This document shows positions 999 to 18,284 of a DNA stretch of 64,000 bases, in pieces. The stretch covers positions 64,001 through 128,000 of IMG/VR virus record IMGVR_UViG_3300045541_000131. One strand, written 5' to 3'. The notes beneath the pieces were generated by a model that saw only the letters and a list, made by a program, of their open reading frames with translations, made no database searches and had not been told where the DNA came from. Position 1 is the first letter of the stretch. Every line of letters begins with the position of its first letter. The stretch is from a virus. The position numbers and the translations under genes were made by a program.

Positions 999-3640
999 GC
1001 TATGTTGACGCTATCTACTTAAAAGAAAAAGACTTAATCAAAGTTGTCGAGCGGGTTGACGGGCAGAGAAAAGAACGACAATATCCTGCCCATTATCTTT
1101 TTTACTATCCCGATCCAAAAGGTCAATACACTGGTATTGATGGTAAGAGACTGGCTAAAGTTGCCGTGGCCAGTCGCAAGGCCTTTGAAAAAGAAAAGAA
1201 AATCTACGGACACAAACAACTGTATGAAAGTGATATCAAGCCACTAAATCGTTGTTTAGAAGCCAATTATCTCAATGCCGAAGCGCCAGAGCTTAATAAA
1301 GCATTCTTTGATATTGAAGTTGCCTTTGACAAAGTAAAAGGCTTTGCGGATCCCAGTGATCCTTTCAATCCTGTCACGGCTGTCACAGTCTATTGCGGCT
1401 GGATGGACAAGTTAATTACCTTATGCATCAAACCCGACAGCATGGAACTGGATCAGGCCGAAGCCATTGTGGCCAGATTTGAAAATACTATTCTTTGCGA
1501 CAGCGAAGAAGACATGCTGGATTTATTCCTAAGCCTATTAGAAGATGCTGATACTATCAGCGGTTGGAACAGCGAAGGCTATGACGTTCCTTACATGGTC
1601 AATCGTATCAGCAGGCTACTAGGTGCAGATCACACTCGTAGATTCTGTTTGTGGGACATGAAGCCACAACGCAGAGAATTTGAAAAGTATGGCAAAATAG
1701 CCGAGACCTTTGACTTTGTTGGCCGTGTACACTTAGACTACTTAGAATTGTATCGCAAGTATACCTATCATGAAATGCACAGTTACAGACTGGATGCCAT
1801 TGGCGAATACGAGTTGGGGGAGACAAAGGTCCAATACGAAGGTACATTGGATCAATTGTATAACAATGACTTTGAAAAGTTCATTGAATACAACAGACAA
1901 GATACTGCGCTCTTAGTCAAGCTGGATAGAAAGCTACAGTATATCGATCTCGTTAACGTACTGGCACATGCCAATACTGTTACGCTACGCACTACAATGG
2001 GCGCGGTGGCTGTAACGGATCAGGCTATTATCAATGAAGCACACAGCCGTGGACTTATGGTTCCTGATCGTAAGCGCGGCGATGATGCTGAAACACAAGC
2101 AGCAGGTGCCTATGTTGCTTATCCCAAGAAAGGCATGCACGACTGGATTGGATCAATGGACTTGAACAGTCTGTATCCCTCGCTGATTCGTGCGCTAAAC
2201 ATGAGTCCTGAAACAATCATCGGTCAAGTGCGTCTTACACAAACCAAAGGCGAACTTAGACAATGGCTGGCAGAAGGTAAAGGCTTTGCTGACTTCTGGG
2301 ACGGCAAGTTCTGTGTCTACGAATATGATGAAATCATGAATCGTAATCGCGGCTATGACTTGGTCATCGAATGGGAGGATGGTCGTGCTACTGAAATGTC
2401 AGCAGCCGAAGCCTATGAGTTGATTTATCTCAGTGGCAATCCATGGATGCTTAGTGCTAACGGCACAATCTTTACTTACGAAAAGCAAGGTGTTATTCCA
2501 GGCCTGCTGGCTCGTTGGTATGCCGAACGTAAAGAGCTACAAAAGAAAGCCAAGACAGCAACTGATCCTAAAGAGTTTGAATTCTGGGACAAGCGACAGC
2601 TAGTTAAAAAGATTAACTTGAATAGTTTGTACGGCGCTTTGCTTAACGCAGGCAGTAGGTTCTTTGATCAACGCATGGGTCAAAGTACTACACTAACAGG
2701 ACGCTGTGTTGCTCGTCATATGGCCGGCAAGACCAATGAACTGTTTACTGGTGAATACAACCACGTAGGCAAAACTATTATCTACGGTGACACTGACAGT
2801 TGTTATTTCAGTGCTTATCCTGTTTATCAAGGACAGATTGAACGCAATGAAATCGAATGGAATCGCGACAAAGTGGTTGAGCTTTATGACGCAGTAGCAG
2901 AAGAAGTCAACGCTAGCTTTACACCATTCATGAATCAAGCATTTAATTGCCCCAGCACTTATGGTGAAGTTATTAAAGCTGGTCGTGAAGTTGTTGCCAG
3001 CAAAGGCCTGTTCATTACTAAGAAGCGGTATGCAGTTCTTATCTATGACAAGGAAGGCAAGCGTAAAGACGTTGACGGTTCTTTGGGTGAAATTAAGGCC
3101 ATGGGTCTAGACCTTAAGCGAGCAGACACTCCCGAGTTCATGCAAAAATTCCTGGAAGAAATTCTGCTTATGGTACTAAATGGCCAAGACAGACTGGACA
3201 TTGTTGACGCCATTAATACTTTTAGAACCGCCTTCAAGGAGCGTCCAGGTTGGGAGAAAGGCACACCTAAACGTGTTAATAACTTGACCAAGCATACAGA
3301 GGTCTTTGAAAAGACTGGCAAGTGCGGAGTTGGACATGCACTGGCAGCTATTAACTGGAATCGTTTTAAGCGAGCTTTTGGTGACCAGCGTAGCATGGAT
3401 ATTACCGACGGCATGAAGGTTATTGTTTGTAAACTCAAATCTAATCCAATGGGCATTACCAGTATTGCTTATCCCATTGACGAACTTAGACTGCCTGATT
3501 GGTTTAAGGAGCTGCCATTTGATCATGCGGCCATGGAAGAAACTATTATCGATAACAAAGTGGACAACCTTATTGGTGTTCTTGAGTGGGATATTAGTGC
3601 TAGTGATCAAAAGACAGCCTTTGATTTGTTGTTCAGCTAA
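995..3640 (+). CDS. Family B DNA polymerase (T4 gp43-like)
   Basis: Exo motifs FDIE, GWNSEGYD, YNRQD; polymerase motifs DLNSLYPS, KINLNSLYG, YGDTDS, KKRYA. Confidence 0.97.
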   Translation: MSYVDAIYLKEKDLIKVVERVDGQRKERQYPAHYLFYYPDPKGQYTGIDGKRLAKVAVASRKAFEKEKKIYGHKQLYESDIKPLNRCLEANYLNAEAPELNKAFFDIEVAFDKVKGFADPSDPFNPVTAVTVYCGWMDKLITLCIKPDSMELDQAEAIVARFENTILCDSEEDMLDLFLSLLEDADTISGWNSEGYDVPYMVNRISRLLGADHTRRFCLWDMKPQRREFEKYGKIAETFDFVGRVHLDYLELYRKYTYHEMHSYRLDAIGEYELGETKVQYEGTLDQLYNNDFEKFIEYNRQDTALLVKLDRKLQYIDLVNVLAHANTVTLRTTMGAVAVTDQAIINEAHSRGLMVPDRKRGDDAETQAAGAYVAYPKKGMHDWIGSMDLNSLYPSLIRALNMSPETIIGQVRLTQTKGELRQWLAEGKGFADFWDGKFCVYEYDEIMNRNRGYDLVIEWEDGRATEMSAAEAYELIYLSGNPWMLSANGTIFTYEKQGVIPGLLARWYAERKELQKKAKTATDPKEFEFWDKRQLVKKINLNSLYGALLNAGSRFFDQRMGQSTTLTGRCVARHMAGKTNELFTGEYNHVGKTIIYGDTDSCYFSAYPVYQGQIERNEIEWNRDKVVELYDAVAEEVNASFTPFMNQAFNCPSTYGEVIKAGREVVASKGLFITKKRYAVLIYDKEGKRKDVDGSLGEIKAMGLDLKRADTPEFMQKFLEEILLMVLNGQDRLDIVDAINTFRTAFKERPGWEKGTPKRVNNLTKHTEVFEKTGKCGVGHALAAINWNRFKRAFGDQRSMDITDGMKVIVCKLKSNPMGITSIAYPIDELRLPDWFKELPFDHAAMEETIIDNKVDNLIGVLEWDISASDQKTAFDLLFS

Positions 3641-4500: not shown

Positions 4501-4878
4501 ATGGCAAAGAAAATGATTTGGGTTACCTTTCGCAAGGAAGGTATTCACCGCTACCCTGATGCTAGCACTAATCCCAAGCTAGCATCAAGCGACGAATATG
4601 ATGTCAGCTTTTTAGGCTATCCTCACAGACACATATTCCATTTTAAAGTTGCTATTGAAGTTTTTCATGACGACCGCGACATTGAGTTTATTCAGTTCAA
4701 ACGCTGGTTAGAAAAACTCTATAGTGAAAAGACTTTAGAACTTGATTTTAAATCCTGCGAAATGATCGCAATGGATTTGTACAAGGCTATTAACGGCCGC
4801 TATCCCCAACGCGAAGTTTGGATTGATGTAAGTGAGGACGGTGAAAATGGATGCCACATTCAATTTGAAAAGAACTAA
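4501..4878 (+). CDS. queD: 6-carboxytetrahydropterin synthase (QueD-like, T-fold)
   Basis: H...HRH Zn ligands (GIHRYP, HRHIFH), SCEMIA, terminal VSEDGEN; lies among dpdA/folE/queE. Confidence 0.75.
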   Translation: MAKKMIWVTFRKEGIHRYPDASTNPKLASSDEYDVSFLGYPHRHIFHFKVAIEVFHDDRDIEFIQFKRWLEKLYSEKTLELDFKSCEMIAMDLYKAINGRYPQREVWIDVSEDGENGCHIQFEKN

Positions 4879-4888
4879 GGTAAAGCCT

Positions 4889-5245
4889 ATGAATAATTAT
4901 ACTAATCATGTAAGTCGTGCGATGATTAATATCAACGATATCAAATACGACTTACTAAAAATTTCTGAACTTTTTGACGGAGTTCTGCAAGAAGGTTTGG
5001 GTCATATGCCAGCAGATATGTATAACGCATATCTCAACGACCTTCGTGAATCTGACTGGATTCACGGATATGAAATTTCTGAAATTGTTCTTAAAGAACA
5101 AAGTTATACATATGATATAACTGTGCAGATCACTAATGATCGCACTCCTAAGAAACTAAAGATCCACGTTGGCCTTTACAAGAGTCCTTGGCCTGCTTTG
5201 GCACCAAGTATGCGATACACGGGTGCAGGTTATGTCGCTAAGTAA
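4889..5245 (+). CDS. hypothetical protein
   Basis: ORF within an operon, overlapping neighbours. Confidence 0.6.
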   Translation: MNNYTNHVSRAMININDIKYDLLKISELFDGVLQEGLGHMPADMYNAYLNDLRESDWIHGYEISEIVLKEQSYTYDITVQITNDRTPKKLKIHVGLYKSPWPALAPSMRYTGAGYVAK

Positions 5246-6776
5246 AAAAACAAGAATTGACATGCAAGCAAAGAATATGGATTATGCCATATTCTTACCT
5301 AGCATTAGCGGGTTTTACCAAGAGCAAGTCAGCAACCAACAGCAGGATCCAAACTGGATTCCTCGGAATCGTATTCCTGCAGAGTTCGAACTTGGGGTAG
5401 AAGGCCTTAACTTCCTTAACAAGGAACAAAGTTATTTCTACTATCCTGATGCATTGTATTCGGCAGGCCATGCACAGCTCAACACTCAAAAGAGCCTTAC
5501 CGAAGAAAGCATGATCCAACAACGAGATCGAAAGAATACTTTTATTCTTGGCGACTCAGGTGGATTCCAGATCGGTAAAGGTGTTATTAACTTTGACTGG
5601 CAGCACTTCTGGGAAAAGCAAGGCGATGCTGGCTATGTAGGCAAAGCAGATAAGACTCGTATGGCCATTCTTAACTGGCTAGAGTTTACTGCTGACTACA
5701 GCATGGTACTTGATATTCCTACTTGGGCGGCCGCTCCTATCAATCAGGAACGCACAGGCCTTAAGACATTCCAAGACTGTCTAAGTGGCACATTGTTTAA
5801 CAATGATTTCTTCCTGCGTAATCGTCAAGGCAAGACCAAGTTCCTGAACGTTCTACAAGGCGGTAACAATGTTGACGCCGAGATTTGGTACGAACAGGTC
5901 AAGCACTATCCCTTCGAAGGTTGGGCTATGGGCGGCAACAACATGAAGGACGTTGATCTCATGTTGCGTCGACTGATTAAACTGCGCGATGAAAAGTTGC
6001 TAGAGCCTGGTCGTGACGTTATTCACTTCCTGGGTACAAGTAAACTTGAACTGGCTTGTTTGCTAACTGCTATTCAACGTAATATTCGCAAGAGTATTAA
6101 TCCTGCTATGAAGGTAACATTTGACTGTGCTAGTCCGTTCTTAGCCACTGCTTATGGTCAGATTTATACTCAACACGTTCATCAGAATAAGCGATTTAGT
6201 TATATCATGGACAAGGCTATAGATGACAAGCGTCTATCAGGTAGCAAGTTGCCTTTCCCATGGGGCAGTCCAATCGGCGAGCGAGTCACTATGGGAGACT
6301 TGTGCTGGTACAAGCCCGGTGATGTTAACAAGTTCGGCAAAGAATGTAAGACATCATGGGACAGTTTCAGCTATGCCATCATGATGGCACATAATGTCTA
6401 TCAGCATATCGAAAGCGTTCAACGTGCCAATATGTTACTAGACTCTGCTTGTAGTTTATATCAACCCGATCCCGGCAAGTTTAGCAAAGCCAAAGGTGTT
6501 AGTGCTGAATTCAGCAATTGGGTACCACGTAGTGTTATCTATGGTGTTGAACTAATCAATCGTGTGTTTGCCAGCGAAACTCCTTACACTGAGCTAGATA
6601 ATGCACAGGCATTGTTAGCAGAACTCAACGGCAAGAAAACTCTTAAGAGCAGTGCCGAAGCATTTGGTGCCTTGTTTGCCAGTGATGACAAGGGCGACGA
6701 CAATGATGCTGAAGCTGCTGAAGCTTGGGACGAAGATCATGCCGAAGAACTGCTAGCGGAGGTTCGTAATGCCTAA
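5232..6776 (+). CDS. dpdA: TGT-fold 7-deazaguanine DNA transglycosylase (DpdA-like)
   Basis: DSGGFQ catalytic motif, MVLDIP, VLQG, GWAMGG, HFLG, TFDCAS; clustered with folE/queD/queE. Confidence 0.8.
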   Translation: MSLSKKTRIDMQAKNMDYAIFLPSISGFYQEQVSNQQQDPNWIPRNRIPAEFELGVEGLNFLNKEQSYFYYPDALYSAGHAQLNTQKSLTEESMIQQRDRKNTFILGDSGGFQIGKGVINFDWQHFWEKQGDAGYVGKADKTRMAILNWLEFTADYSMVLDIPTWAAAPINQERTGLKTFQDCLSGTLFNNDFFLRNRQGKTKFLNVLQGGNNVDAEIWYEQVKHYPFEGWAMGGNNMKDVDLMLRRLIKLRDEKLLEPGRDVIHFLGTSKLELACLLTAIQRNIRKSINPAMKVTFDCASPFLATAYGQIYTQHVHQNKRFSYIMDKAIDDKRLSGSKLPFPWGSPIGERVTMGDLCWYKPGDVNKFGKECKTSWDSFSYAIMMAHNVYQHIESVQRANMLLDSACSLYQPDPGKFSKAKGVSAEFSNWVPRSVIYGVELINRVFASETPYTELDNAQALLAELNGKKTLKSSAEAFGALFASDDKGDDNDAEAAEAWDEDHAEELLAEVRNA

Positions 6777-7653
6777 GGCCTTAGTTATTGGCCTAGGCAT
6801 GGGCCAACAGTATCGTGACTGGATGGCAGAGATGGGCTATGAAGTTTTTACCTGTGACATAGACGCAGGTAAAAGCCCCGACTACACCAATATGAATGAA
6901 GCTATATTAGAGCATAAAAACTTTGATATTGTTTATATTGGCACGCCAAACTTTACGCATGAGATATTGGCCTATAATGTAGTTAATAACTGTCGCTTAT
7001 TGCTGATTGAAAAACCCGGTGTCGTTGACAGCATGTCTTGGCGTAACTTGGTCAAGTCTAATCCTAGTACTAGGATTATGATGGTTAAGAACAATCAATA
7101 TCGTCCCGAGATTGCCGAATTTAAACGACTGGCCAGTATGAGCGAGCGTGTATATGTTCGTTGGAACAATCGCAATCGTATTCCTCATCCTGGCAGTTGG
7201 TTTACTACTCGTAGTAAGGCATTTGGCGGTGTCAGTAGGGACTTGATTCCTCACATGTTAAGTTACTACTGTGCGTTGACAAACTATAGCACTGGTGTTA
7301 GACTATTTGCTCAGGCACAACAGCGACATGAACTCAAGGATATTCAAGATACTGATTACGGCAGCGTTAATCATAGTGGTGTTTACGATGTCGACGACTT
7401 CTGTGAATTTGAATTTAAAAATGCCGACACTCGTTGGGTATTAACAGCTAATTGGAAAGATGATCGGGCCGATGACAGTAGCATTACATTTGATGTTTCC
7501 GATCAGATTACAAAGTTTGAATTAGGCCTTTGTCCTAAGGAAGCGTATCAGACTATGATAGAAACTGCTGTGGCAAACCTAAATAATAATATATTCTGGG
7601 AAGAACAATTAGCTCAGGATCTTTGGATACACAAACAAATCGAACATCTATGA
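6769..7653 (+). CDS. Gfo/Idh/MocA-family NAD(P) oxidoreductase
   Basis: VIGLGMG Rossmann motif, TPNFTH, IEKPG, GGVSRDLIPH. Confidence 0.85.
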   Translation: MPKALVIGLGMGQQYRDWMAEMGYEVFTCDIDAGKSPDYTNMNEAILEHKNFDIVYIGTPNFTHEILAYNVVNNCRLLLIEKPGVVDSMSWRNLVKSNPSTRIMMVKNNQYRPEIAEFKRLASMSERVYVRWNNRNRIPHPGSWFTTRSKAFGGVSRDLIPHMLSYYCALTNYSTGVRLFAQAQQRHELKDIQDTDYGSVNHSGVYDVDDFCEFEFKNADTRWVLTANWKDDRADDSSITFDVSDQITKFELGLCPKEAYQTMIETAVANLNNNIFWEEQLAQDLWIHKQIEHL

Positions 7654-8546
7654 ATAGAGTATTAGCAACTACAGGGCAAGGTCAGTTCGTTGAAACTGAA
7701 TATACCGGCAGCTTAGATATTGAACCTAATCAGATTCTTGTTGAATCTGTAATGACTGGCGTATGTCGCAGTGACATTGATATGATGCAGGGCAACTTTG
7801 GTCCGTTGCCTATTAATATGCAGGGACACGAAGGATTAGGTCGTGTCATCGAAATTGGAAAGGAAGTAAAAGATGTTATCGTTGGAGACTATGTTGCAAC
7901 CCGAGGCGAACCAGCCTATGCCGACAGATATGTTGTTCGTCATAGAGAATATGTTAGGGTTCCAGAGGCTCATCCTCGATTTATATTGGAACCAGTGGCT
8001 TGCGGCATCAACGTTATACATCAACCTATTCGAGAAATCGCTGAACGCAGTGGGCCAGGACGTAAACTCCTAATCCTTGGCAGTGGCTTTTTGGCTTGGG
8101 TGGCTTATAACACTATCATGCTCAATCACTTAGAATTCGATATTACTGTTATTGGCAACAGTAATAAAGAACTTTGGGGACAACAACTGGCTCTATACTA
8201 CGGCGGCAAGTTTGATGTTGTTATTGATTTAAGTAGTAGAGATGATGTGTTTACCAAAGACATCCTACGCAATGAAGCATTGGTAGTATTTGGTGTTGAG
8301 AAAAAGATAACCACATCATTTGCCAATTTACTTTGGAAAGCCTGTACTATAGTATTTCCCAGCCCCAGAACTGACAAGTTTTACCAATGTATGGCAGATG
8401 CGGCTCGTTGGATAGAGGATGGCGATATTGATGTTGACACCTTCTGGACCAAAGTCTATAATAGGGATACCGAATGGCAGCAGGCATTTACCGACGGAGT
8501 AAACCGCCCCGAAGGTTACAGCAGAGGATATATTAAATGGCTTTGA
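7650..8546 (+). CDS. Zn-dependent medium-chain (alcohol/sugar) dehydrogenase-like protein
   Basis: GVCRSD, GHEGLG, LEPVACG, ILGSG; lacks the 4-Cys structural Zn lobe. Confidence 0.8.
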   Translation: MNRVLATTGQGQFVETEYTGSLDIEPNQILVESVMTGVCRSDIDMMQGNFGPLPINMQGHEGLGRVIEIGKEVKDVIVGDYVATRGEPAYADRYVVRHREYVRVPEAHPRFILEPVACGINVIHQPIREIAERSGPGRKLLILGSGFLAWVAYNTIMLNHLEFDITVIGNSNKELWGQQLALYYGGKFDVVIDLSSRDDVFTKDILRNEALVVFGVEKKITTSFANLLWKACTIVFPSPRTDKFYQCMADAARWIEDGDIDVDTFWTKVYNRDTEWQQAFTDGVNRPEGYSRGYIKWL

Positions 8547-9055
8547 ATACCGCAGAACGAAAGAACATTGTTTACTTTACTGGATATGAGGTAGAGCATA
8601 CCGTTTGTTATGGTATGAAAACTTTGTTTGTTGTAGGCACACCGCCCTTGGCAGAAATTCTTGAACGAGCACGACAAGACCCTGAAATCAAGCAAATCTA
8701 TTTTGGCACCAGTCAAAGTTTTACACCTCGCGAAACTAGTGAGTGGAGGACCTGGGATGATCGTATTACAGGTTGTTTAAATGCAGATTATTGGGTTACA
8801 CTAGACTTTGATTCGTCGTATGCTCAAGAAATGCACGAAGAAGGTTGGTGTGAGCATGACAAATTCGTGCCTATGATCAGTGTTAAGCTGCCTTATATTA
8901 AACTCTATAACTATAATACAACACTTAAGATTGATGATAATACATGGGGTGCTACTAACCCTGGTGTATGGACACACCAACTGCATGATTTGATGAGTAA
9001 GGACAAATATACCTACTGGGATCAATACACACAGGATACACCAACTAATGAGTAA
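8537..9055 (+). CDS. hypothetical protein in the deazaguanine cluster
   Basis: Translationally coupled ORF; no motif recognised. Confidence 0.65.
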   Translation: MALNTAERKNIVYFTGYEVEHTVCYGMKTLFVVGTPPLAEILERARQDPEIKQIYFGTSQSFTPRETSEWRTWDDRITGCLNADYWVTLDFDSSYAQEMHEEGWCEHDKFVPMISVKLPYIKLYNYNTTLKIDDNTWGATNPGVWTHQLHDLMSKDKYTYWDQYTQDTPTNE

Positions 9056-10151
9056 TATATTTTTAGTTGACTTAGAAGCTGTCGAGACACGCTACACAGG
9101 ACAATGGAAGCATCATGTTCCCGAACTACTTAAAAAAGCAGGACATCAAGTTCAAGTTATCAGTGGCCCTGAAGACATTCCTAGTGCCACTACTCCTGGG
9201 GCCTTTCTTAATTTTGGCGGCACTAATATCTATAAGTCTCGACAAGTTGAGCAAATGGGTCGTTTATTTTGCTCCGGAGCAGTTAGGCCTGGTGATCATT
9301 TTCTTTTTACTGATGCTTGGCATCCTGGTATCATAAACTTAAAGTACATGAGTGAACTGTTGCAGATTCCTGTGACAATTCATGCATTATGGCATGCTGG
9401 CAGTTATGATCCGCATGACTTTCTAGGACGCCTTATCGGTGATGAGCCTTGGGTTCGTTATGCAGAAAAAAGTTTTTATCATGCCATTGACCATAACTAC
9501 TTTGCCACAGCCTTTCATATCGATATGTTTGTGCGTAATCTTCTTAATGACAATGGCTCTGCAGAAAATCCTTGGTTAGAAGATGACTTGGACATGATTA
9601 TGGCTAGCCAATCTGCCAAGTTTGTTCGCACAGGTTGGCCCATGGAATATATGGAAGCAACGCTAACTCCATACAAAAATATGACTAAGCGTGATCTTAT
9701 TTTATTTCCGCATCGTATCGCACCCGAGAAGCAAGTTGATATCTTTAGAGACTTAAAGCAACATTTGCCTCAGTATGAGTTTGTTGTTTGTCAAGATCAT
9801 CAGTTGACTAAGAATGAATATCATAACTTGCTAGGCCAAGCAAAACTAGTATTCAGTGCCAACTTACAAGAAACACTGGGTATCAGTTGTTATGAAGGTG
9901 CCATTGTTGATGCTATTCCAATGGTGCCTGATAGGCTAAGTTATCGAGAAATGTATTTCGAAAGTTTTAAGTATCCTAGTAAGTGGACAGAAAGTTTCGA
10001 TGCTTATTCTGTTTATCGACCGGATCTCTGCAGAAAGATCATGGAGCATATGGATCATTATGAAACTCGTTTGCCCATGCTTAAAAAGCAAACACAGTCG
10101 CTGACAGAACATTTTTTCAGCGCCAACAAGCTCTTGGAGAACATTAAGTGA
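9048..10151 (+). CDS. GT-B fold glycosyltransferase
   Basis: HAGSYD, FPHRIAPEKQ, and LQETLGISCYEG (E-x7-E signature of retaining GT-B enzymes). Confidence 0.8.
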   Translation: MSNIFLVDLEAVETRYTGQWKHHVPELLKKAGHQVQVISGPEDIPSATTPGAFLNFGGTNIYKSRQVEQMGRLFCSGAVRPGDHFLFTDAWHPGIINLKYMSELLQIPVTIHALWHAGSYDPHDFLGRLIGDEPWVRYAEKSFYHAIDHNYFATAFHIDMFVRNLLNDNGSAENPWLEDDLDMIMASQSAKFVRTGWPMEYMEATLTPYKNMTKRDLILFPHRIAPEKQVDIFRDLKQHLPQYEFVVCQDHQLTKNEYHNLLGQAKLVFSANLQETLGISCYEGAIVDAIPMVPDRLSYREMYFESFKYPSKWTESFDAYSVYRPDLCRKIMEHMDHYETRLPMLKKQTQSLTEHFFSANKLLENIK

Positions 10152-10528
10152 TTAAAGTAATTTTCACTGGCGGCCAGCCTAATATGTATCAGCTTGATCG
10201 CAGTTATAGTTTACCAAGTGTTACTGGCCAAGTTCGCTGGAACGGTTCTAGTAAATGTTTTGAAGTATGCGACAATAACAATGGCAATTATTCAGCCAGT
10301 GGTGGTTGGATGAAAATTGACAATACCATTGAAATGAATACTAACGGTCCTGACATTTGGGAAATGCATCGCTGGATCGAAGAAAAGAAACGAGAAGAGG
10401 CTGAACTCAAGGCACTACGCACTAAATACCCAGCACTAGACGAAGCTTACAATCACTACAATCTTATTAAGGAATTAGTTAAGGCTGGCCCTGAATACAG
10501 TAATGAAAAGGAACCCAATCGTCCATGA
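10148..10528 (+). CDS. hypothetical protein
   Basis: Coupled ORF. Confidence 0.6.
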   Translation: MIKVIFTGGQPNMYQLDRSYSLPSVTGQVRWNGSSKCFEVCDNNNGNYSASGGWMKIDNTIEMNTNGPDIWEMHRWIEEKKREEAELKALRTKYPALDEAYNHYNLIKELVKAGPEYSNEKEPNRP

Positions 10529-10998
10529 TTTTCAATAAAGTTCGTGAGCTTAAAGATAAAGGCCTAAAAATCGGCATAACTTTTAGCACATTTGATCTGC
10601 TGCATGCAGGACATATTGCTATGTTAGCGGAGGCAAAAAATCACTGCGATTACTTGATTGTCGGTCTACAAACTGATCCTACTATTGATCGTCCCGGCAC
10701 AAAGAACAAACCTGTTCAAAGTGTCGTTGAGCGACAAATACAACTAGCTGCTGTTCGGTATGTTGACGAAATAGTAGTTTATCAAACAGAACAAGATTTG
10801 CTAGACATTATTCTTACTCTGCCTATTGATGTAAGAATCTTGGGCGTCGAATATCGTGACAAAGACTTCACTGGTAGATCGCAAGGACTTACTAGAAATA
10901 TCGAACATATCTATAATCGCCGTGATCATAGTTTCAGTTCTAGTAATCTTCGCAAGCGTGTCGTCGAAGCAGAATTAATGAAAGAATTAAAACAATGA
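10525..10998 (+). CDS. Cytidylyltransferase (TagD/glycerol-3-phosphate CT-like)
   Basis: TFDLLHAGH (HxGH) and RDHSFSSS motifs. Confidence 0.9.
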   Translation: MIFNKVRELKDKGLKIGITFSTFDLLHAGHIAMLAEAKNHCDYLIVGLQTDPTIDRPGTKNKPVQSVVERQIQLAAVRYVDEIVVYQTEQDLLDIILTLPIDVRILGVEYRDKDFTGRSQGLTRNIEHIYNRRDHSFSSSNLRKRVVEAELMKELKQ

Positions 10999-11918
10999 GA
11001 ATTGGTGTTATTGGATATGGATACGTAGGTAAAGCAGTTGCGGCTGCACATGACAGAAACTTGATTATGGTCAATGACCCATATGCTTTAGAAGAATGGG
11101 AACAGTATACCATTGATCAAATTAAAGAACATACTGGCTGGGTGTATGTTTGTGTCCCGACCCCGATGGCAGAAGATGGTAGTTGCGACACTAGTATTCT
11201 GCAAGGAGTATTGGATAGTTTAGCGGATTACGAAGGTATTGTTATTAGCAAATGTACCGCACCACCAGAATTTTACATTAATATTTCCAAAGAGTGCGGA
11301 AAATATAAAAAGTATAAATTCCGTTTAATTCATATGCCCGAGTTCTTAACCGCGGCCAATGCTCTGCACGATTATATGCATCCTGAACTAATTGTCATTG
11401 GAGGTAATGCCCACGATACCAGTTATGTTTCTCAATTTGTTATCGCTACTGATATGACCTATAAAACCAAGGCTAAGGTTATTAGAACAGACATCGGTAG
11501 TGCGGCCGCTATGAAATATTATGCCAATAGTTGGTTAGCCACTAAGGTTGTGTTTAATAATCAATTTGCCAAATGGTGTGAAAGCCAAGGTGTAAATTGG
11601 AATGATATGGCCGAAGTTTGCAAAGAAGATCAGAGATTAGGTAAAAGTCATTATCGTGTTCCTGGCGAAAATGGTGATGTTGGCTATGGTGGCGCTTGTT
11701 TTCCTAAAGATGTTAGTGCTATTTTGACATCGGCTGGAAAAAAGAATGTTGATATGAGTCTATTACAAAAGCAAGTTGATATTAATAATCAAATGCGAGA
11801 GCAACAGAGATTAGAACGGGAAGAGGCCGAACGACTTAAGAGTTCAATTCCAACTCGCCGAAATCGAAACGAAATTCCTCGTGGGCCGATTGCTCGACAA
11901 CCTCGCCGAAATCGTTGA
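10995..11918 (+). CDS. ugd: UDP-glucose/GDP-mannose dehydrogenase family protein lacking the C-terminal domain
   Basis: GYGYVG, VCVPTP, PEFL, KYYANSWLA, GYGGACFPKD. Confidence 0.85.
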   Translation: MRIGVIGYGYVGKAVAAAHDRNLIMVNDPYALEEWEQYTIDQIKEHTGWVYVCVPTPMAEDGSCDTSILQGVLDSLADYEGIVISKCTAPPEFYINISKECGKYKKYKFRLIHMPEFLTAANALHDYMHPELIVIGGNAHDTSYVSQFVIATDMTYKTKAKVIRTDIGSAAAMKYYANSWLATKVVFNNQFAKWCESQGVNWNDMAEVCKEDQRLGKSHYRVPGENGDVGYGGACFPKDVSAILTSAGKKNVDMSLLQKQVDINNQMREQQRLEREEAERLKSSIPTRRNRNEIPRGPIARQPRRNR

Positions 11919-11943
11919 CTATGCCTAAATACTATTGTATAAT
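11915..11943 (+). promoter_or_regulatory. sigma70-type promoter with nested TAAATA
   Basis: TTGACT(11915)-17 nt-TATAAT(11938). Confidence 0.7.
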
Positions 11944-11985
11944 CTAAATATACGTGTGACCCACCACAATAACTCGGAGAATAAA

Positions 11986-12687
11986 TTGACAGATACAAGT
12001 AAAAACCTAAGCCAAATCCTTCGCGAACGAATGAAGGCCGACAACAAACGATTCTGGGCCGGAGACAACATTAGTGACTACATTGCGCCCAGTGACAAAG
12101 AACACTTAATCAACGAAGCTACTAAAGCCTTTGAACAAGTATTGGACACTCTGCTAATTGACAGGGAAACTGATCCAAATAGTAAAGGTACAGCGCGGCG
12201 TCTTGCCAAGATGTACTTTAATGAGATAATGAGTGGTCGATATGAACCAAGGCCGGATGCGACAAGTTTTCCCAACGATTCGGTGGATCGTTACGAAGGC
12301 ATGCTAGTTGTTCGTAGTGAACTTCGTAGTATGTGTAGCCATCATCACCAGCCGGTGTCGGGAGTTGCTTATATTGGTATCATTGCTGCCGAGAAGCTTA
12401 TTGGCCTTAGCAAGTATACTCGTATTGCTCAATGGTGTGCTCGTCGCGGTACACTACAAGAAGAATTGGCTAATGACATTGCCAGAGAAATTGAAAAAGC
12501 TACTGGTGCCAAGAACCTGGGTGTTTATATTCAAGCCACACACGGATGCTGTGAAAATCGTGGCATTATGGCACATAGTAGTCTAACACAAACTACAGTA
12601 CTGAAAGGTTCTTTTAAAGAAGATCCGGGTGCTAAAAAAGAATTCTTTGACAATATTAAACTTCAGCAAGAGTTTGCTCCGAGGTAA
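11986..12687 (+). CDS. folE: GTP cyclohydrolase I
   Basis: SMCSHHH, IGLSK, LQEEL, HGCCENRG; probable TTG start after SD GGAG. Confidence 0.95.
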   Translation: MTDTSKNLSQILRERMKADNKRFWAGDNISDYIAPSDKEHLINEATKAFEQVLDTLLIDRETDPNSKGTARRLAKMYFNEIMSGRYEPRPDATSFPNDSVDRYEGMLVVRSELRSMCSHHHQPVSGVAYIGIIAAEKLIGLSKYTRIAQWCARRGTLQEELANDIAREIEKATGAKNLGVYIQATHGCCENRGIMAHSSLTQTTVLKGSFKEDPGAKKEFFDNIKLQQEFAPR

Positions 12688-12689
12688 TT

Positions 12690-12875
12690 ATGAAAGATCC
12701 TATTGTGCAAGAATTGGTCGATGATCTTAAAAATTCTGTTGCTCGTGTCAATGCATTGATGGCAGAACTACAAAATCACAGCGTTGAAGTGCGTATAGAA
12801 TATAGAGACAGAAAAGGCGATGAACCACAGCGTATAAATTTGTGGCGTATTCAACAGCATAATGACTACCTCTAA
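12690..12875 (+). CDS. hypothetical protein
   Basis: SD GAGG; ORF within operon. Confidence 0.55.
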   Translation: MKDPIVQELVDDLKNSVARVNALMAELQNHSVEVRIEYRDRKGDEPQRINLWRIQQHNDYL

Positions 12876-13227
12876 CAATATCGGAATCTATCATGTCACC
12901 GGTGGCGGCACAGGGATTAATTATCCTAATTCTGCTATTGCCAATGGGCAATATACAATCTCTGCCAGCAATAACCTAGGAATAGGACAAACACAACAAA
13001 GTGGAATAACTATAATGGCACCTGACGGCGAAGCGATTATAACCTTTCATACAGATGGCAGGATAGAAACAAAAGGCGGTTCAATACAGGCTCGAGATCT
13101 AACCGCAGTAATTAAACTAATGAAGCGTATGATGACTGACATGGCCAATGATGAAGAACTCGCCAAGAAGTTTCCTTACATCAAGGATGCTGCTCACGAG
13201 TGGGTTATGGATGAACTAAGGAAGTAA
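12862..13227 (+). CDS. hypothetical protein
   Basis: Coupled ORF. Confidence 0.55.
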   Translation: MTTSNNIGIYHVTGGGTGINYPNSAIANGQYTISASNNLGIGQTQQSGITIMAPDGEAIITFHTDGRIETKGGSIQARDLTAVIKLMKRMMTDMANDEELAKKFPYIKDAAHEWVMDELRK

Positions 13228-13228
13228 G

Positions 13229-13597
13229 ATGAATATAGAAAAGTATTTTAGTTTTTACGGATCAGCAACACGGTCTGAATATTGGGGAGTGCAAATAATT
13301 TCTTATATTGTATTCTTTGTCTTTGCAATGATGGCTGCTTTAATCAGCACTGCATTGGGACCTTCCGGCGTTATTGCAGTAGGTGTTTTTATCTTTTTAT
13401 TGATTGTTCCACTAACTTGGATTGTAATGGCAACTACAGCAAGACGATGCAGGGACGCAGGCATTAATCCATGGTTTACTGCTGCAATTTTTATCCCGTA
13501 CCTGGCTATTATTCCGTGGATAGTTTTTGGATGTTTATCAACTGTAAAAGGAGAACAAAATGGTAACAAAGAAGAAAGCAACACCAGTGTCAACTGA
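13229..13597 (+). CDS. DUF805-like membrane protein
   Basis: FSFYGSATRSEYW ... TARRCRDAG pattern with TM helices. Confidence 0.8.
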   Translation: MNIEKYFSFYGSATRSEYWGVQIISYIVFFVFAMMAALISTALGPSGVIAVGVFIFLLIVPLTWIVMATTARRCRDAGINPWFTAAIFIPYLAIIPWIVFGCLSTVKGEQNGNKEESNTSVN

Positions 13598-13844
13598 CCC
13601 GGTGATTGTCAAAGGCAGTCATCTCACAGTGACAACGTGGGCCAATGGTCGCACCGAACTTAAATGGGACGACGAAGCATTGCTGAAAGATGTGCAAAAT
13701 GCTGTTCTAAAATACGAGTCAAATATTCCAGCAACTTCATCAAAGCCTGCTAAAAAGGTTGCGGCGAAGATGACTGTCGACAAAAAAGAACCAGCAAAGA
13801 AAACTGCTGCCAAAAAGACTACACCTAAGAAAACTAAAAAATGA
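13560..13844 (+). CDS. hypothetical protein with Lys/Ala-rich histone-like tail
   Basis: C-terminus KPAKKVAAK...AKKTAAKKTTPKKTKK. Confidence 0.6.
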   Translation: MVTKKKATPVSTDPVIVKGSHLTVTTWANGRTELKWDDEALLKDVQNAVLKYESNIPATSSKPAKKVAAKMTVDKKEPAKKTAAKKTTPKKTKK

Positions 13845-13984
13845 TCTTCTTAACTATTTTGATCTTTTTATTAGGATTTGCCTGCATGATTTTGGCTGCT
13901 GCCAAGGGTTGGATTAAACCTGGCTGTGCAGGCGACTGTTATCAGGGTCGCAGGGCTTGCAATTGTAGAGGACGCAATGACTAA
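13841..13984 (+). CDS. 47-aa membrane protein with Cys-rich tail (absent from ORF track)
   Basis: MIFLTILIFLLGFACMILAAAKGWIKPGCAGDCYQGRRACNCRGRND*; fills the gap exactly with overlaps on both sides. Confidence 0.65.
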   Translation: MIFLTILIFLLGFACMILAAAKGWIKPGCAGDCYQGRRACNCRGRND

Positions 13985-14567
13985 AGTTTATTATACTTGG
14001 CGACAGTTTGATCGTGATGTAGTCGAGCTAGCAAGACAAATTTGGGTCAGCGGCTGGCAACCAGACTATATTGTAGGTATTAGTCGAGGTGGATTGCCTT
14101 TGGCAGTGGCACTCAGCAACTATATGAACATTCCAATGAAACCCTTGCAGGTCAGCTTGCGAGATGGAGGCGAATGTGTCAGTGACTTAGGCATGGCCGA
14201 AGATGCTTATGGTTATCCGAAGCAAGAAGTCATTGTTAGTGATGAAACAGATTTTGGTGCTGTTCTAGACGCTGCTAATGATTTACTTGAGCAGGGCCCT
14301 AACTACAAAAACATTCTCATTGTAGATGACATCAACGATAGCGGTGCCACATTTAATTGGATTACAGAAGACTGGCCCTCAGGCTGTATGCCTAATGATC
14401 CGGATTGGGCAGATGTGTGGAACAACAATGTAAAGTTTGCTACACTATGGGACAATCCGGCTAGTAAATTTAAATATTCTGTGGATTATACTATTCACAT
14501 AAAAGATCCCGAACAAGATCCATGGATCGTATTCCCATGGGAACAACCATTTACAGGTGAAGCATGA
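13977..14567 (+). CDS. Type I (purine) phosphoribosyltransferase
   Basis: IVGISRGGL, LIVDDINDSGAT (PRPP-binding), WIVFPWE as in Gpt. Confidence 0.9.
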   Translation: MTKVYYTWRQFDRDVVELARQIWVSGWQPDYIVGISRGGLPLAVALSNYMNIPMKPLQVSLRDGGECVSDLGMAEDAYGYPKQEVIVSDETDFGAVLDAANDLLEQGPNYKNILIVDDINDSGATFNWITEDWPSGCMPNDPDWADVWNNNVKFATLWDNPASKFKYSVDYTIHIKDPEQDPWIVFPWEQPFTGEA

Positions 14568-14998
14568 AAAGAAAAGGCTCTAAGAAAAAATCCGAAATGA
14601 CTATCAAATTTGATGTCGAACAGTTTATCATGGAAGATCATCCATGGCGTGATCCCATTAAGGAAAATGATAACATGTTTGTTTTCCGCGACGGGTTTCC
14701 GGTAAGTGAAGTTGGTCACTTTTTATTTGTGCCAAAGACTAACGACATGGATGATATATCAGCTTGCCTGGATGCGGCTGTAAAACAAGGTGCTGTGTTT
14801 GTAGATCAAGAAATATGTGATGCATTTAATGTTGGCATGAACTACGGCGAAGCTGCCGGGCAAACTGTCATGTGGCCGCATATTCATTTAATTCTTAGAA
14901 AGACAGGCGACTGTGAAAATCCTCGTGGCGGAGTAAGACATGTTATTCCGGGCAAAGGAGACTACACAAAATATGTCACGGATGCTAATTCAGATTAA
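14564..14998 (+). CDS. HIT-family nucleotide hydrolase
   Basis: DGFPVSEVGHFLFVPK, NVGMNYGEAAGQTVMWPHIHLI (first His of the triad replaced by W). Confidence 0.85.
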   Translation: MKRKGSKKKSEMTIKFDVEQFIMEDHPWRDPIKENDNMFVFRDGFPVSEVGHFLFVPKTNDMDDISACLDAAVKQGAVFVDQEICDAFNVGMNYGEAAGQTVMWPHIHLILRKTGDCENPRGGVRHVIPGKGDYTKYVTDANSD

Positions 14999-15203
14999 TT
15001 TTTGGCAAGCCAAACAATTAGAATATTGGCTTAAGGACAACTATCCCGAATGTACCGTTTCGGCAATTGACTATGATCGTCACGTGCCTCCTGAAGAATT
15101 AGATTGGTATAGAGTAGATGGCCCAATTGATGTTGACTTATCCTGCATGATTCAGTTAAAATACGGAAAAGCAAAAGAAGAAACTACAAATGGAAAAATT
15201 TAA
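14973..15203 (+). CDS. hypothetical protein
   Basis: Coupled ORF; start uncertain. Confidence 0.5.
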   Translation: MSRMLIQINFWQAKQLEYWLKDNYPECTVSAIDYDRHVPPEELDWYRVDGPIDVDLSCMIQLKYGKAKEETTNGKI

Positions 15204-16050
15204 AGTCAGTGAAATATTTTATTCGGCACAAGGCGAAGGAAGATTCGTCGGTGTGCCCAGTATCTTTTTTAGAACTTTTGGTTGTAACTTTAAGTGTGCA
15301 GGATTTGGTTTACCCGCAGGTGAAAAAACCACAGAGCCAGACGAAATAGGTCGACAAGTTCATCTATATAAGTCTTTCATGGATTTGCCTTTGGCTAAAA
15401 CTGGTTGCGATAGTTATGCCAGCTGGCACCCTGCGTTTAAGCATTTAAGCCCTAACTACAGCGTTGATGAAGCCATTGATGCTATGCTGGCTTTGACGCC
15501 AAATCATCGTTGGGGACAAAGCAACGGCAATGATGTTCATTTGGTTATTACAGGCGGAGAGCCGTTACTTGGCTGGCAAATGCTGTATCCTGAACTGCTG
15601 GCTAATAAGCAAATGAAGGATCTTCGTAATCTAACTTTTGAAACTAACGGCACTCAACATCTGCACAAGGAATTTAAATACTTCTTGATGGATAACTTCC
15701 ATATTGCCAGAGAAGGTATTACCTTTAGCGTTAGCCCTAAACTTAGTGCCAGCGGCGAATCGTGGGAAGATGCAGTTAGACCTGAGGTTATTAAAGAGTA
15801 TCAACAGGTAGGCTTTACTTACTTGAAGTTTGTAATTGATAAACAAGAAGATTTCGACGAAGTTGATCGTGCTGTTCAAGAATACCGTCGAGTTGGCTTT
15901 ACTGGACCTGTCTATGTTATGCCCGTTGGCGGTACTGATGCTGCCTATTTTAGCAATACTAAACACATCGCCGACGAAGCATTGGCTCGCGGCTATCGTT
16001 ACAGTCCACGACTACATGTGGACATTTGGAGCAATGGTTGGGGAAAGTAA
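15190..16050 (+). CDS. queE: 7-carboxy-7-deazaguanine synthase (radical SAM)
   Basis: SEIFYSAQGEG, FRTFGCNFKC...GCDS, ITGGEP, ETNG, SVSPK, SPRLH. Confidence 0.92.
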   Translation: MEKFKVSEIFYSAQGEGRFVGVPSIFFRTFGCNFKCAGFGLPAGEKTTEPDEIGRQVHLYKSFMDLPLAKTGCDSYASWHPAFKHLSPNYSVDEAIDAMLALTPNHRWGQSNGNDVHLVITGGEPLLGWQMLYPELLANKQMKDLRNLTFETNGTQHLHKEFKYFLMDNFHIAREGITFSVSPKLSASGESWEDAVRPEVIKEYQQVGFTYLKFVIDKQEDFDEVDRAVQEYRRVGFTGPVYVMPVGGTDAAYFSNTKHIADEALARGYRYSPRLHVDIWSNGWGK

Positions 16051-16277
16051 CAGAAACGAGAACTAGAACATTAGTTAAGACTGTTATCTATAGAATATGG
16101 GTAATAGTATCAACTTATGTGATGTTATTGCTTACTGGTCAGAGCATGACACAGGCTCTGATTCCAACCATTATTATTAACTGTGTTTGGATGACGTCAT
16201 ATTATCTGTATGATCGACTATGGAGCCATATAGATTGGGGAAGAAATGAAAGCACAGACGCCAGCACAAGGAATTAG
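16026..16277 (+). CDS. DUF2061-like small membrane protein
   Basis: ETRTRTLVKTVIYRI...YYLYDRLWSHIDWG pattern. Confidence 0.7.
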   Translation: MEQWLGKVTETRTRTLVKTVIYRIWVIVSTYVMLLLTGQSMTQALIPTIIINCVWMTSYYLYDRLWSHIDWGRNESTDASTRN

Positions 16278-16599
16278 TCTTACCGGAGACTACGGCGGAG
16301 CTAAAAACTTTAAAGTAGAATGCGACTGCGGCAGCGATGATCATGCTGCTCATATGTGGATCGAGATACAACGTGATCAAGATGTCCCTGATGTAGAAGT
16401 TAGTTTTTATGTAACTACTTGGACTAAACAGTTCTGGGATGGATGGCCGGCTCGACTACGAGCCGTGTTTGATATCCTTGTTCAAGGTGTACACAAACAA
16501 GAACATCATATGTTGTTGAACAAGCAAAGTGCCGTAAACTTTGCTCATGCAATTTTAGATACTGTAAAAGAAATGGAAAAGAAAAATGGCAATGCCTGA
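16246..16599 (+). CDS. hypothetical protein
   Basis: CDCG...H putative Zn site; coupled ORF. Confidence 0.6.
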   Translation: MKAQTPAQGISLTGDYGGAKNFKVECDCGSDDHAAHMWIEIQRDQDVPDVEVSFYVTTWTKQFWDGWPARLRAVFDILVQGVHKQEHHMLLNKQSAVNFAHAILDTVKEMEKKNGNA

Positions 16600-17103: not shown

Positions 17104-17305
17104 ACTTAACTGGAACTTTCGCATAAATTGGGTAGGAAACGATCACATTCTAATTGCTTACAAAAAACAAGACAATGATGAATGGGACGAGTTTTTACTT
17201 ACTGTACGAGAATATACTGAATGGATGAGTTTATTGCAAGATTTTAATTCTGCATTTCACGATCGTATTGAACAACAACTTCTTAACTCTTATTTAAATG
17301 GCTAA
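17093..17305 (+). CDS. hypothetical protein
   Basis: Coupled ORF. Confidence 0.5.
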   Translation: MKSKLNWNFRINWVGNDHILIAYKKQDNDEWDEFLLTVREYTEWMSLLQDFNSAFHDRIEQQLLNSYLNG

Positions 17306-18284
17306 AATGTATCTTCTAGTAGACGCCGCTAACATGTTCTTTCGTGCCCGTCATGTGGTACGAGGAGAGGACGCTGAAACTAAAGTTGGTATGGCATACC
17401 ATATTATGTTCAACAGCATTAACAAAGTATGGCGTGATTTTAAAGGTAGTCACGTTGTGGTCTGTCTCGAAGGCCGCAGTTGGCGTAAGGATGTCTACGA
17501 AGGCTACAAGCGTAATCGAGCCGATGCTCGTGCTGCACTTAGTCCAAAGGAAGCAGAAGAAGATAAAATCTTCTGGCAAGCATTCGATGAACTCAAAGAA
17601 TATCTCACTGCTAAAACAAATTGCACGGTACTTCGGCATGACCGTTGCGAGGCTGATGATTTTATTGCTCGTTGGATTCATAATCATCCCGACGATAATC
17701 ATGTTATTGTAAGTAGCGACAGCGACTTTTATCAACTATTGGCTCCTAATGTCAGGCAATATAATGGCATTACTAAACAGCTAATCACTGTCGAAGGTGT
17801 CTTTGATGAAAAAGGCAAACGAGTCTTAGATAAGAAAACCAAGGAACCCTTGCCAGCACCTGATCCTCAGTGGCTGCTATTTGAAAAATGTATGCGCGGT
17901 GATACTACTGACAATATATTCAGTGCTTATCCCGGTGTGCGTGAAAAGGGCAGTAAGAACAAGGTTGGACTTCGCGAAGCATTTGCTGACAGGGATACCA
18001 AAGGATACAATTGGAACAACATGATGCTACAGCGTTGGGTTGACCACGAAGGTATTGAGCATCGTGTCAGAGACAAGTATCTGTTCAATAAACAATTAAT
18101 TGACTTGACTGAACAGCCCGAAGATATTAAACTAGCACTAGACGAAACTATTGCCACTGCAACTGGCAAGACCCGTGTAAGTCAAGTCGGCTTACATTTT
18201 GTAAAGTTTTGTTCCAAATGGAATCTTGTTAATGTGGCAGACAAGATGACAGAGCATGGAGATTATCTGGGAGCGGCATACTAA
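17298..18284 (+). CDS. rnh: T4 RNase H-like 5'-3' exonuclease (FEN family)
   Basis: LLVDAAN, YKRNR, EADD, SSDSDF, GDTTDNI. Confidence 0.92.
   Translation: MAKMYLLVDAANMFFRARHVVRGEDAETKVGMAYHIMFNSINKVWRDFKGSHVVVCLEGRSWRKDVYEGYKRNRADARAALSPKEAEEDKIFWQAFDELKEYLTAKTNCTVLRHDRCEADDFIARWIHNHPDDNHVIVSSDSDFYQLLAPNVRQYNGITKQLITVEGVFDEKGKRVLDKKTKEPLPAPDPQWLLFEKCMRGDTTDNIFSAYPGVREKGSKNKVGLREAFADRDTKGYNWNNMMLQRWVDHEGIEHRVRDKYLFNKQLIDLTEQPEDIKLALDETIATATGKTRVSQVGLHFVKFCSKWNLVNVADKMTEHGDYLGAAY

Follow-up and report, generated by a model that had tools for sequence, protein, structure and literature searches.

Phages carrying DpdL represent the closest described systems to the locus presented here. This protein, recognised by the signature LxxxHRHxF, is proposed to be the decarboxylase of 7-carboxy-7-deazaguanine (CDG), and the phages that encode it lack QueC but have DpdA, FolE, QueD and QueE (Cui, Hutinet et al., NAR 2023, PMC10516641; hereafter Cui et al. 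2023). The DNA of one of them, Cellulophaga phage phiST, contains 302,000 2'-deoxy-7-deazaguanosine (dDG) per million nucleotides, and dDG could not be reconstituted from dpdL and dpdA of Acidovorax phage ACP17 alone, so that missing enzymes were suggested (Cui et al. 2023). The stretch of viral DNA analysed here (the window; 64,000 nucleotides, bases 64001-128000 of the 138,652-base IMG/VR record IMGVR_UViG_3300045541_000131, with a CheckV completeness of approximately 33%) holds a related row of genes between positions 4,501 and 16,050. This row is tentatively read, at a confidence that falls a little short of an even call, as a QueC-independent, DpdL-type 7-deazaguanine DNA-modification module of a PA5oct-related jumbo phage, extended by a putative glycosyl-transfer branch.

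The module lies on the + strand, flanked by genes for a family-B DNA polymerase (995-3640) on its upstream side and for a 5'-3' exonuclease (17298-18284) on its downstream side. An initial annotation, made from the letters alone, had named most of its genes, and their positions, their common strand and the mostly overlapping stops and starts agree with the present analysis; from the tRNA-guanine transglycosylase (TGT)-like gene through the sugar dehydrogenase, successive genes overlap by 4 to 31 bases. With the exception of its queD, the identities proposed there (TGT-fold dpdA-like gene, folE, queE, Gfo/Idh/MocA oxidoreductase, Zn-type dehydrogenase, GT-B glycosyltransferase, cytidylyltransferase and sugar dehydrogenase) were borne out by families or folds, as given below for each gene. 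Simple scans of the region gave no excess of promoter-like sites (38, compared to 33.2 in shuffles) or terminator-like sites (5, compared to 9.4). The 11.5-kb region had no megablast match among phages, the DpdL gene, the TGT-like gene and the GT-B gene had no match in any sequence library searched, and Pfam, PHROGs, NCBIfam and phmmer against the PDB returned nothing for the TGT-like protein, the GT-B protein or a conserved 172-amino-acid (aa) protein. The identities of the first two of these proteins were resolved only through profiles and folds.

The gene initially annotated as queD (4501-4878, +) encodes a DpdL homologue, a paralogue of QueD with a predicted T-fold. Its sequence LGYPHRHIF at residue 38 corresponds to the DpdL signature, which replaces the CxxxHGH of QueD, and L39, H43, H45 and F47 are invariant in an alignment of 13 DpdL homologues. 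By tblastn, the protein is 55% identical to DpdL of ACP17 (YP_009609725, E 5e-35) and 32% identical to CGPG_00067 of phiST (E 1e-8). Comparison with E. coli QueD by hhalign spans the full length at E 0.007, with a probability of only 5.5%; the three zinc-binding histidines are aligned, and the catalytic Cys27 is replaced by Leu. As a lead only, its nearest named cluster in the Atlas is PTPS. A QueD/PTPS identity was nevertheless rejected, given the Leu at the catalytic position and the lack of a PF01242 match, which is absent at E ≤ 0.01 for this protein and at E ≤ 10 anywhere in the record. The genetic context is that expected for DpdL, with DpdA, FolE and a QueE-like enzyme present and QueC not found. 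An 118-aa protein without a recognised family (4889-5245, +; present in 17 of 41 related loci) is encoded between DpdL and the TGT-like enzyme.

The latter, a 514-aa protein (5232-6776, +), is a DpdA3-type TGT-fold transglycosylase. An AlphaFold2 model built on 57 diverse members reached a predicted local distance difference test (pLDDT) score of 91.4, the best 50 Foldseek matches of this model are all TGT (best E 3.6e-7), and VIA-align superimposes it on TGT 2ash_B with a Z of 19.8 (306 residues, root-mean-square deviation (rmsd) 4.5 A). The profile of the 57-sequence alignment points in the same direction, with TGT accounting for 39 of its 41 PDB matches, each only at E ~0.5. In this alignment D94, S95, G97, G216, H251 and D284 are invariant. 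The protein holds DSGGFQ, HFLG and FDC motifs; the first is in register with the TGT motif DSGG(F/Y)Q in the profile comparison with the PDB, which places it at the position equivalent to TGT Asp102, and the FDC motif is presumably the equivalent of the one around the TGT nucleophile Asp280. The closest cultured relative is gp168 of PA5oct (38.2% identity over 87% of the length, E 4e-95). This protein probably corresponds to QCG76197, listed as DpdA3 in spreadsheet DS1 of Cui et al. 2023, as it lies two accessions from the DpdL QCG76199, just as gp168 lies two from gp166. The comparison with phiST DpdA3 by hhalign (E 3.3e-5, probability 72%) covers only 82 columns. The exchange of guanine in DNA for a 7-deazaguanine base is the predicted activity of the 514-aa enzyme, for which the restriction resistance of PA5oct DNA speaks indirectly. 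At least 7,920 of 8,000 scored candidates (90% clustering) belong to this family at E ≤ 0.001, and 50% clustering leaves 897 representatives, which are proteins of approximately 500 aa without a Pfam domain. Since the family is so large, the modification would be widespread in nature.

FolE (11935-12687, +) is a clear GTP cyclohydrolase I, with a PF01227 match (E 2.6e-38) of 131.7 bits against a gathering cut-off of 27 and an NF006824 match at E 4.3e-39. The CDG synthase is probably represented by a QueE-like radical SAM enzyme (15190-16050, +), recognised by phrog_2076 ('QueE-like', E 3.7e-54) and matched by five QueE models of NCBIfam at E 1.6e-12 to 2.7e-8, all of them below their cut-offs. 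The canonical QueE cysteine spacing is CX3CX2C. The protein of the window has only three Cys (residues 32, 36 and 73) in a CX3CX36C spacing, which corresponds to an insertion compared to the canonical enzyme, and it shares 31% identity with gp162 of PA5oct, listed as QueE (Cui et al. 2023). In addition, a PhyH-family 2OG-Fe(II) (2-oxoglutarate- and iron-dependent) dioxygenase (19405-20103; PF05721, E 1e-13) is encoded 3.3 kb downstream of QueE, without a homologue in the related loci, most of which stop short of that point.

The initial annotation had recognised no QueC, QueF or ArcS in the window, and the same is true beyond it: neither these nor glutamine-amidotransferase families occur among the 176 open reading frames (ORFs) of the whole record, and a six-frame search of the record with the QueC hidden Markov model gave no match. 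The complete 286,783-base genome of PA5oct has no QueC either. Sub-threshold QueC-like signals were seen in relatives only, with 17.7 bits in a 326-residue open frame of relative G002 and 12.6 bits in relative G001; the former falls in a 306-aa ORF that follows the glycosyltransferase in locus L024 and for which Pfam is empty. The absence of QueC, which the initial annotation had linked to a possible insertion of CDG or a derivative into DNA, is a hallmark of the published DpdL/DpdA3 route rather than a sign of a new pathway, since DpdL phages lack QueC and phiST contains dDG. Insertion of CDG is consequently not the leading reading.

What sets this module apart is a glycosyltransferase (GT) of the GT-B fold (9048-10151, +; 367 aa). 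Its AlphaFold2 model (pLDDT 76) gave 215 Foldseek matches at E ≤ 0.001, led by glycogen synthase, BshA and PglA (3l01 at E 3.9e-8), and the Z values in VIA reached 23.0 for 6kih_A (sucrose-phosphate synthase; 313 residues, rmsd 3.3 A), 22.5 for BshA and 21.6 for MshA, with PglA and PimA as further retaining GT-B neighbours. The EX7E motif, which marks the GT4-like retaining class, is present as ETLGISCYE at residue 275, and E283 is invariant in 12 sequences. Pfam finds Glycos_transf_1 in 4 of 12 family members, not in the protein of the window itself. Among cultured phages, the GT shares 34% identity with gp124 of ACP17 (E 1e-59) and 43% with gp167 of PA5oct. The queuosine mannosyltransferase QTMAN/GTDC1 was tried as an identity and rejected: its QTMAN_N domain (PF12038) gave no match at E ≤ 10 in the record, at E ≤ 1 in PA5oct, ACP17, Phosso and two related contigs, or at E ≤ 5 in the 12 family members.

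The gene directly preceding the GT encodes the conserved 172-aa protein (8537-9055, +), which has no Pfam, PHROG, NCBIfam, PDB-profile or usable ESM Atlas match. Its own profile retrieved from the PDB only a chance match to dynein (E 0.64), and Pfam on 14 members returned nothing below E 0.03. All 13 of its matches in cultured phages are PA5oct-likes or gp122 of ACP17, the latter encoded directly upstream of DpdA.

The conservation of both proteins supports the putative glycosyl-transfer branch. The 28 proteins of the window that were scored against 41 related viral loci can be compared for the 22 loci whose sequence continues for 10 kb or more beyond the DpdA3 gene on its downstream side. DpdL, the 172-aa protein and FolE are each found in 21 of these 22 loci, the GT in 20 by tblastn and QueE in 19. 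One of the two loci without a tblastn match to the GT (L022) encodes a divergent Glycos_transf_1 protein at the corresponding place, which raises the count to 21; the other (L042) is a distant locus (26% identity) where the rest of the module is also missing. As they are kept in 20 to 21 of the 22 loci, the GT and the 172-aa protein belong to the core of the module. The same association is observed in cultured phages, where a GT homologue occurs in 22 records and, in 17 of them, no more than 3 kb separates it from DpdL. These 17 represent six lineages: Phosso (18 bases apart), eleven PA5oct-likes, ACP17 (two records), X1, BUDD and BCSR5. According to Cui et al. 2023, ACP17, BUDD and BCSR5 have a DpdA2 context and PA5oct a DpdA3 context. 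Since the linked lineages include both subtypes, the GT follows DpdL and not a particular DpdA.

Four further genes for sugar and redox enzymes are inserted in this row. The Gfo/Idh/MocA-type oxidoreductase (6769-7653, +) is recognised by weak matches (PF01408 at E 1.7e-5, PF22725 at E 2.7e-4), its best PDB sequence match being 3e82 (E 1.4e-4). It is followed by a Zn-type medium-chain dehydrogenase (7623-8546, +), identified by its N-terminal domain (ADH_N, E 2.2e-11) and by 133 PDB matches to alcohol and threonine dehydrogenases at E ≤ 0.01. Downstream of the GT, and after a subclade-specific 126-aa protein with no family found (10148-10528, +), comes a small cytidylyl/adenylyltransferase of the HxGH class (10525-10998, +; PF01467 E 1.5e-12, HAGH motif), which matches RfaE domain II (E 1e-21) and TagD (E 6.6e-18) in NCBIfam, both below cut-offs, and ethanolamine-phosphate cytidylyltransferase (E 1.3e-16) and TagD (E 8.9e-14) in the PDB. 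The last of the four is a short, 307-aa homologue of nucleoside diphosphate (NDP)-sugar 6-dehydrogenases (10995-11918, +; PF00984 E 1.1e-20, PF03721 E 1.3e-18, TIGR03026 E 2.1e-47 over profile positions 75-300 of 413). It holds the catalytic-Cys motif GGACFPKD and ends in a highly charged Arg/Glu-rich tail, with no C-terminal UDP-binding domain found.

These genes have a more restricted distribution. Gfo, the Zn-type dehydrogenase and the 126-aa protein occur in 10 of the 22 loci each, the sugar dehydrogenase in 9 and the cytidylyltransferase in 6, and the genes for redox steps and nucleotide activation are extras of the nearest subclade, where DpdA3 identity is at least 74%. The link between the sugar genes and dpdA in relatives, on which the initial annotation had made its proposal depend, therefore stands for the GT (21 of 22 loci and six cultured lineages), not for the Gfo, Zn-dehydrogenase, cytidylyltransferase and sugar dehydrogenase genes (6 to 10 of 22, nearest subclade). 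Other subclades have different sugar-nucleotide enzymes beside the GT: L012 and L022 encode a NAD-dependent epimerase/dehydratase there, and PA5oct a short version of it (gp164). Genes of the orotidine monophosphate (OMP) decarboxylase family lie beside the GT in L015 (15358-16017) and L020 (within 14063-16329), and the L020 module also encodes a 523-aa flavoenzyme of the tryptophan-halogenase family (PF04820, E 1.5e-83) and a 2OG-Fe(II) oxygenase. The extra genes of L015 and L020 may serve other derivatisations of the deazaguanine ring.

Some additional genes were observed in these neighbourhoods. Small HhH-GPD proteins, of the base-excision glycosylase superfamily, are encoded between FolE and HIT in L028 (15227-15661) and L037 (10965-11369), which belong to a marine-type subclade with 47% DpdA3 identity, and a gene annotated as 'glycosylase' adjoins DpdL in Phosso. 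Close relatives have a sulfate-permease-family gene between Gfo and the Zn-type dehydrogenase, and they also encode small proteins of the fatty-acid-hydroxylase family (one or two) and an unassigned protein of approximately 300 aa after the GT (L011 12378-13553; L024 9338-10528; L005 14878-15858; L024 13001-13447).

Two genes that the initial annotation had passed over sit between folE and queE. One encodes a purine-type phosphoribosyltransferase (PRT; 13926-14567, likely start 13977, +), with a PF00156 match at E 7.4e-14 and a match to the xanthine PRT model NF006613 at E 8.3e-11, below its cut-off. It is found in 12 of the 22 loci, all six of its tblastn matches in cultured phages are to DpdL phages (phiST group and BUCT-ZZ01), and gp163 of PA5oct is a PRTase by Pfam. 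The other encodes a HIT-family nucleotide hydrolase/transferase (14564-14998, +; PF01230 E 1.1e-6), present in 14 of the 22 loci, with a PH(V/I)HLI motif in all nine aligned homologues. As none of its five cultured-phage matches are to DpdL phages, the link of the HIT protein to the pathway consists in synteny within the metagenomic clade only.

For the core of the proposed pathway, the gene assignments come from the present analysis and the chemistry from the literature. FolE would open GTP, QueD, not encoded in the 138-kb record, would make CPH4, and QueE would make CDG, which DpdL is proposed to decarboxylate to 7-deazaguanine; the DpdA3-type enzyme would then swap guanine in DNA for this base. 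The GT, probably together with the 172-aa protein, may add a sugar to the deazaguanine or to a precursor of it. The sugar could be placed on the free base, on a nucleotide or on the base once it is part of the DNA, with the exocyclic N2 (the site used in huimycin) and the electron-rich C7 as candidate positions. In this subclade, four neighbouring enzymes could make or tailor the donor, namely the cytidylyltransferase, the short NDP-sugar dehydrogenase and the two dehydrogenases of Gfo and Zn type. Because the cytidylyltransferase is nearest to ethanolamine-phosphate and glycerol-3-phosphate cytidylyltransferases and to the adenylyltransferase domain of RfaE, such a donor may be an alcohol phosphate or a heptose, activated with CDP or ADP, and not a UDP-hexose. 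The simplest role for the PRT would be the salvage of the released guanine to GMP, and then to GTP for FolE.

The undescribed glycosylated deazaguanine suggested by the initial annotation is, on these grounds, plausible: the synteny of the GT is kept in relatives, whereas the part of the argument built on the missing QueC is accounted for in print. The literature searched holds no published description of a glycosylated deazaguanine, or of any glycosylated purine, in DNA. A wider version of this proposal would have PA5oct-likes, ACP17-likes and the metagenomic clade all carry glycosylated 7-deazaguanine in their DNA through a dedicated retaining GT-B enzyme and its 172-aa partner, with a sugar that varies with the tailoring genes of each subclade and with some relatives derivatising the base otherwise, as by the flavin-dependent halogenase of L020. 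This extended scheme is possible, and we regard it with some doubt.

Several observations weigh against a glycosylated base in DNA. Its chemistry is the weak point, as 7-deazaguanine has no hydroxyl, and the sugar would have to be attached at N2 or C7, or else before the decarboxylation step. The structural neighbours of the GT act on small molecules, and the T4 DNA glucosyltransferases are not among its best 50 structural matches in Foldseek or VIA, so that DNA is not favoured as the acceptor. No GT homologue is detectable in 11 of 28 DpdL-carrying cultured records, including the phiST group, or in the 12 kb around DpdL in RHph_I1_18. The tailoring genes, confined as they are to the nearest subclade, could serve another pathway. 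On the side of the base itself, the decarboxylase activity of DpdL is a proposal in the literature as well, where the reconstitution of dDG failed, and no canonical QueD is encoded in the window or in the 138-kb record, which would lack about two thirds of the genome; relatives have QueD elsewhere in their genomes (two in PA5oct, one each in G001 and G004). An alternative, which we favour somewhat less than the main reading, is that the module makes nothing but dDG, as in phiST, and the GT, the 172-aa protein and the sugar and redox genes act on a host or virion glycan or on a small metabolite. Indeed, phiST reaches its high dDG content with FolE, QueD, QueE, DpdL and DpdA3 and without a GT homologue, and the base it contains is plain dDG with no obvious acceptor group. 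The record also encodes other glycosyltransferases, namely a GT4 enzyme (L044 3574-4569) and an N-acetylglucosamine (GlcNAc) transferase (L046 598-1569), and thus glycan work unrelated to DNA does exist in this phage. However, an unrelated function would hardly account for a GT that stays next to DpdL in 21 of the 22 loci and in six cultured lineages, whether their DpdA is DpdA2 or DpdA3. The overlaps that tie the genes from DpdA3 to the sugar dehydrogenase together also speak against this alternative, and the failure of dpdL and dpdA of ACP17 to yield dDG on their own leaves room for further enzymes (Cui et al. 2023).

Two other explanations place the chemistry elsewhere. The PRT could convert CDG or 7-deazaguanine into a ribonucleotide, in the manner of TubE, with decarboxylation or glycosylation at that level and entry into DNA through the polymerase, leaving DpdA3 a minor role. 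The tubercidin pathway offers a precedent, proceeding without QueC from CDG by means of a phosphoribosyltransferase and a decarboxylase, and the occurrence of the PRT in 12 of the 22 loci and in PA5oct, its restriction among cultured phages to those with DpdL, the OMP-decarboxylase-family genes beside the GT in L015 and L020, and the MazG-like pyrophosphatase that adjoins DpdL in phiST are all in line with it. Nonetheless, this route is improbable, as DpdA is present in every known phage with deazaguanine in its DNA and a post-replicative insertion has been argued for (Cui et al. 2023), the PRT is nearest to xanthine/guanine salvage enzymes, and family scans of the module detected no dedicated kinase or reductase. 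Lastly, the fold of the 514-aa enzyme is that of a tRNA-guanine transglycosylase, which would be compatible with a modification of tRNA instead of DNA. We consider this very improbable, since the 138-kb record has no tRNA gene and the homology is to the DpdA3 subfamily, whose members accompany full replacement of G in phiST DNA. In addition, the DNA of PA5oct is reported in a preprint to withstand five restriction enzymes whose recognition sequences contain G, and to be a target of nucleases that detect modified G.

If the glycosyl-transfer branch does act on deazaguanine, it would represent a new chemical class of DNA hypermodification, as the sugar-decorated DNA bases of phages known to us are all pyrimidines. 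It could also explain why dDG was not reconstituted from dpdL and dpdA alone, and it would identify the modified G that defence nucleases sense in PA5oct, a therapeutic candidate phage. No identification of this base was found in the literature searched, and in the same preprint mass spectrometry is reported for other phages only.

Beyond the module, the record carries other genes that are unusual for a phage. A very large radical-SAM cluster extends over 30235-57630 of the window (- strand) and L048 (G000 127001-138652), with 16 ORFs that have Radical_SAM matches, two of which match SPASM as well. After it come a carbamoyltransferase (57627-59099) and GatZ-like, shikimate-DH-N, SnoaL, NTP_transf_3 and two DUF6071 proteins. 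A SUF iron-sulfur assembly operon (L044 14369-19573, with the same coordinates in G000) encodes a SufB/D core, an ABC ATPase, a second SufBD piece, a SufS-like aminotransferase, SufE and an FeS_assembly_P protein, and could be of service to QueE and the many radical SAM enzymes. Further auxiliary genes (L044 1451-12060; L046 598-7009; L045 6191-6415) code for the curli proteins CsgG and CsgF and a curlin-repeat protein, as well as for a CHASE2-guanylate cyclase, a fatty-acid desaturase, an alternative oxidase, a TctA transporter, the GlcNAc-transferase and translation factor IF-1.

Compared to known sugar-adding systems, the branch has two counterparts. The alpha- and beta-glucosyltransferases of T4 are phage enzymes of the GT-B fold that decorate a modified DNA base, 5-hydroxymethylcytosine, after replication; they differ from the present GT in their acceptor, which is the hydroxymethyl group of a pyrimidine. 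HuiG resembles it by description, as a GT4-class enzyme encoded with FolE, QueD and QueE genes that acts on a 7-deazapurine base, where it transfers GlcNAc onto the 2-amino group (N2) (PMC7439116; bioRxiv 10.64898/2026.04.15.718813). HuiG, however, belongs to actinomycete secondary metabolism, depends on QueC for its preQ0 core, has no DpdA beside it and yields a free metabolite.

Among DpdL phages, phiST shares with the window FolE, a QueE or QueE-like enzyme, a DpdL with the LxxxHRHxF signature, a DpdA3-type enzyme and the lack of QueC; in both the module adjoins a DNA polymerase, and a PRT homologue is present in the phiST genome. Unlike the window, phiST has no homologue of the GT or the 172-aa protein at E ≤ 1e-3, its DpdA3 has 259 aa compared to 514 aa, and its cluster contains no sugar-nucleotide genes. 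ACP17 encodes FolE, the homologue of the 172-aa protein (gp122), DpdA, the GT (gp124), DpdL and QueE in one row (gp121 to gp126), although it is a T4-like phage of 156 kb and has a DpdA of the DpdA2 class, which BLASTP does not significantly relate to the enzyme of the window (E 1.8). 'Glycosyl' and 'phosphoribosyl' do not appear in the main text of Cui et al. 2023, nor does 'glycosyltransferase' in its spreadsheet, where PA5oct is listed with DpdA3, DpdL, FolE, QueD and QueE and without QueC. In this Pseudomonas jumbo phage (Wroclawvirus, gp168 to gp162), PolB, gp170, DpdA3, the GT, DpdL, further genes, the PRTase, QueE and the 5'-3' exonuclease are syntenic with the window, while the homologue of the 172-aa protein lies 28 kb away and the module has no Gfo/Zn-dehydrogenase/cytidylyltransferase/sugar-dehydrogenase block, only the short epimerase-like gp164. 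Together with its conserved extension of GT, 172-aa protein and PRT, which was not found in the literature searched, the window is a new member of the known DpdL/DpdA3 system.

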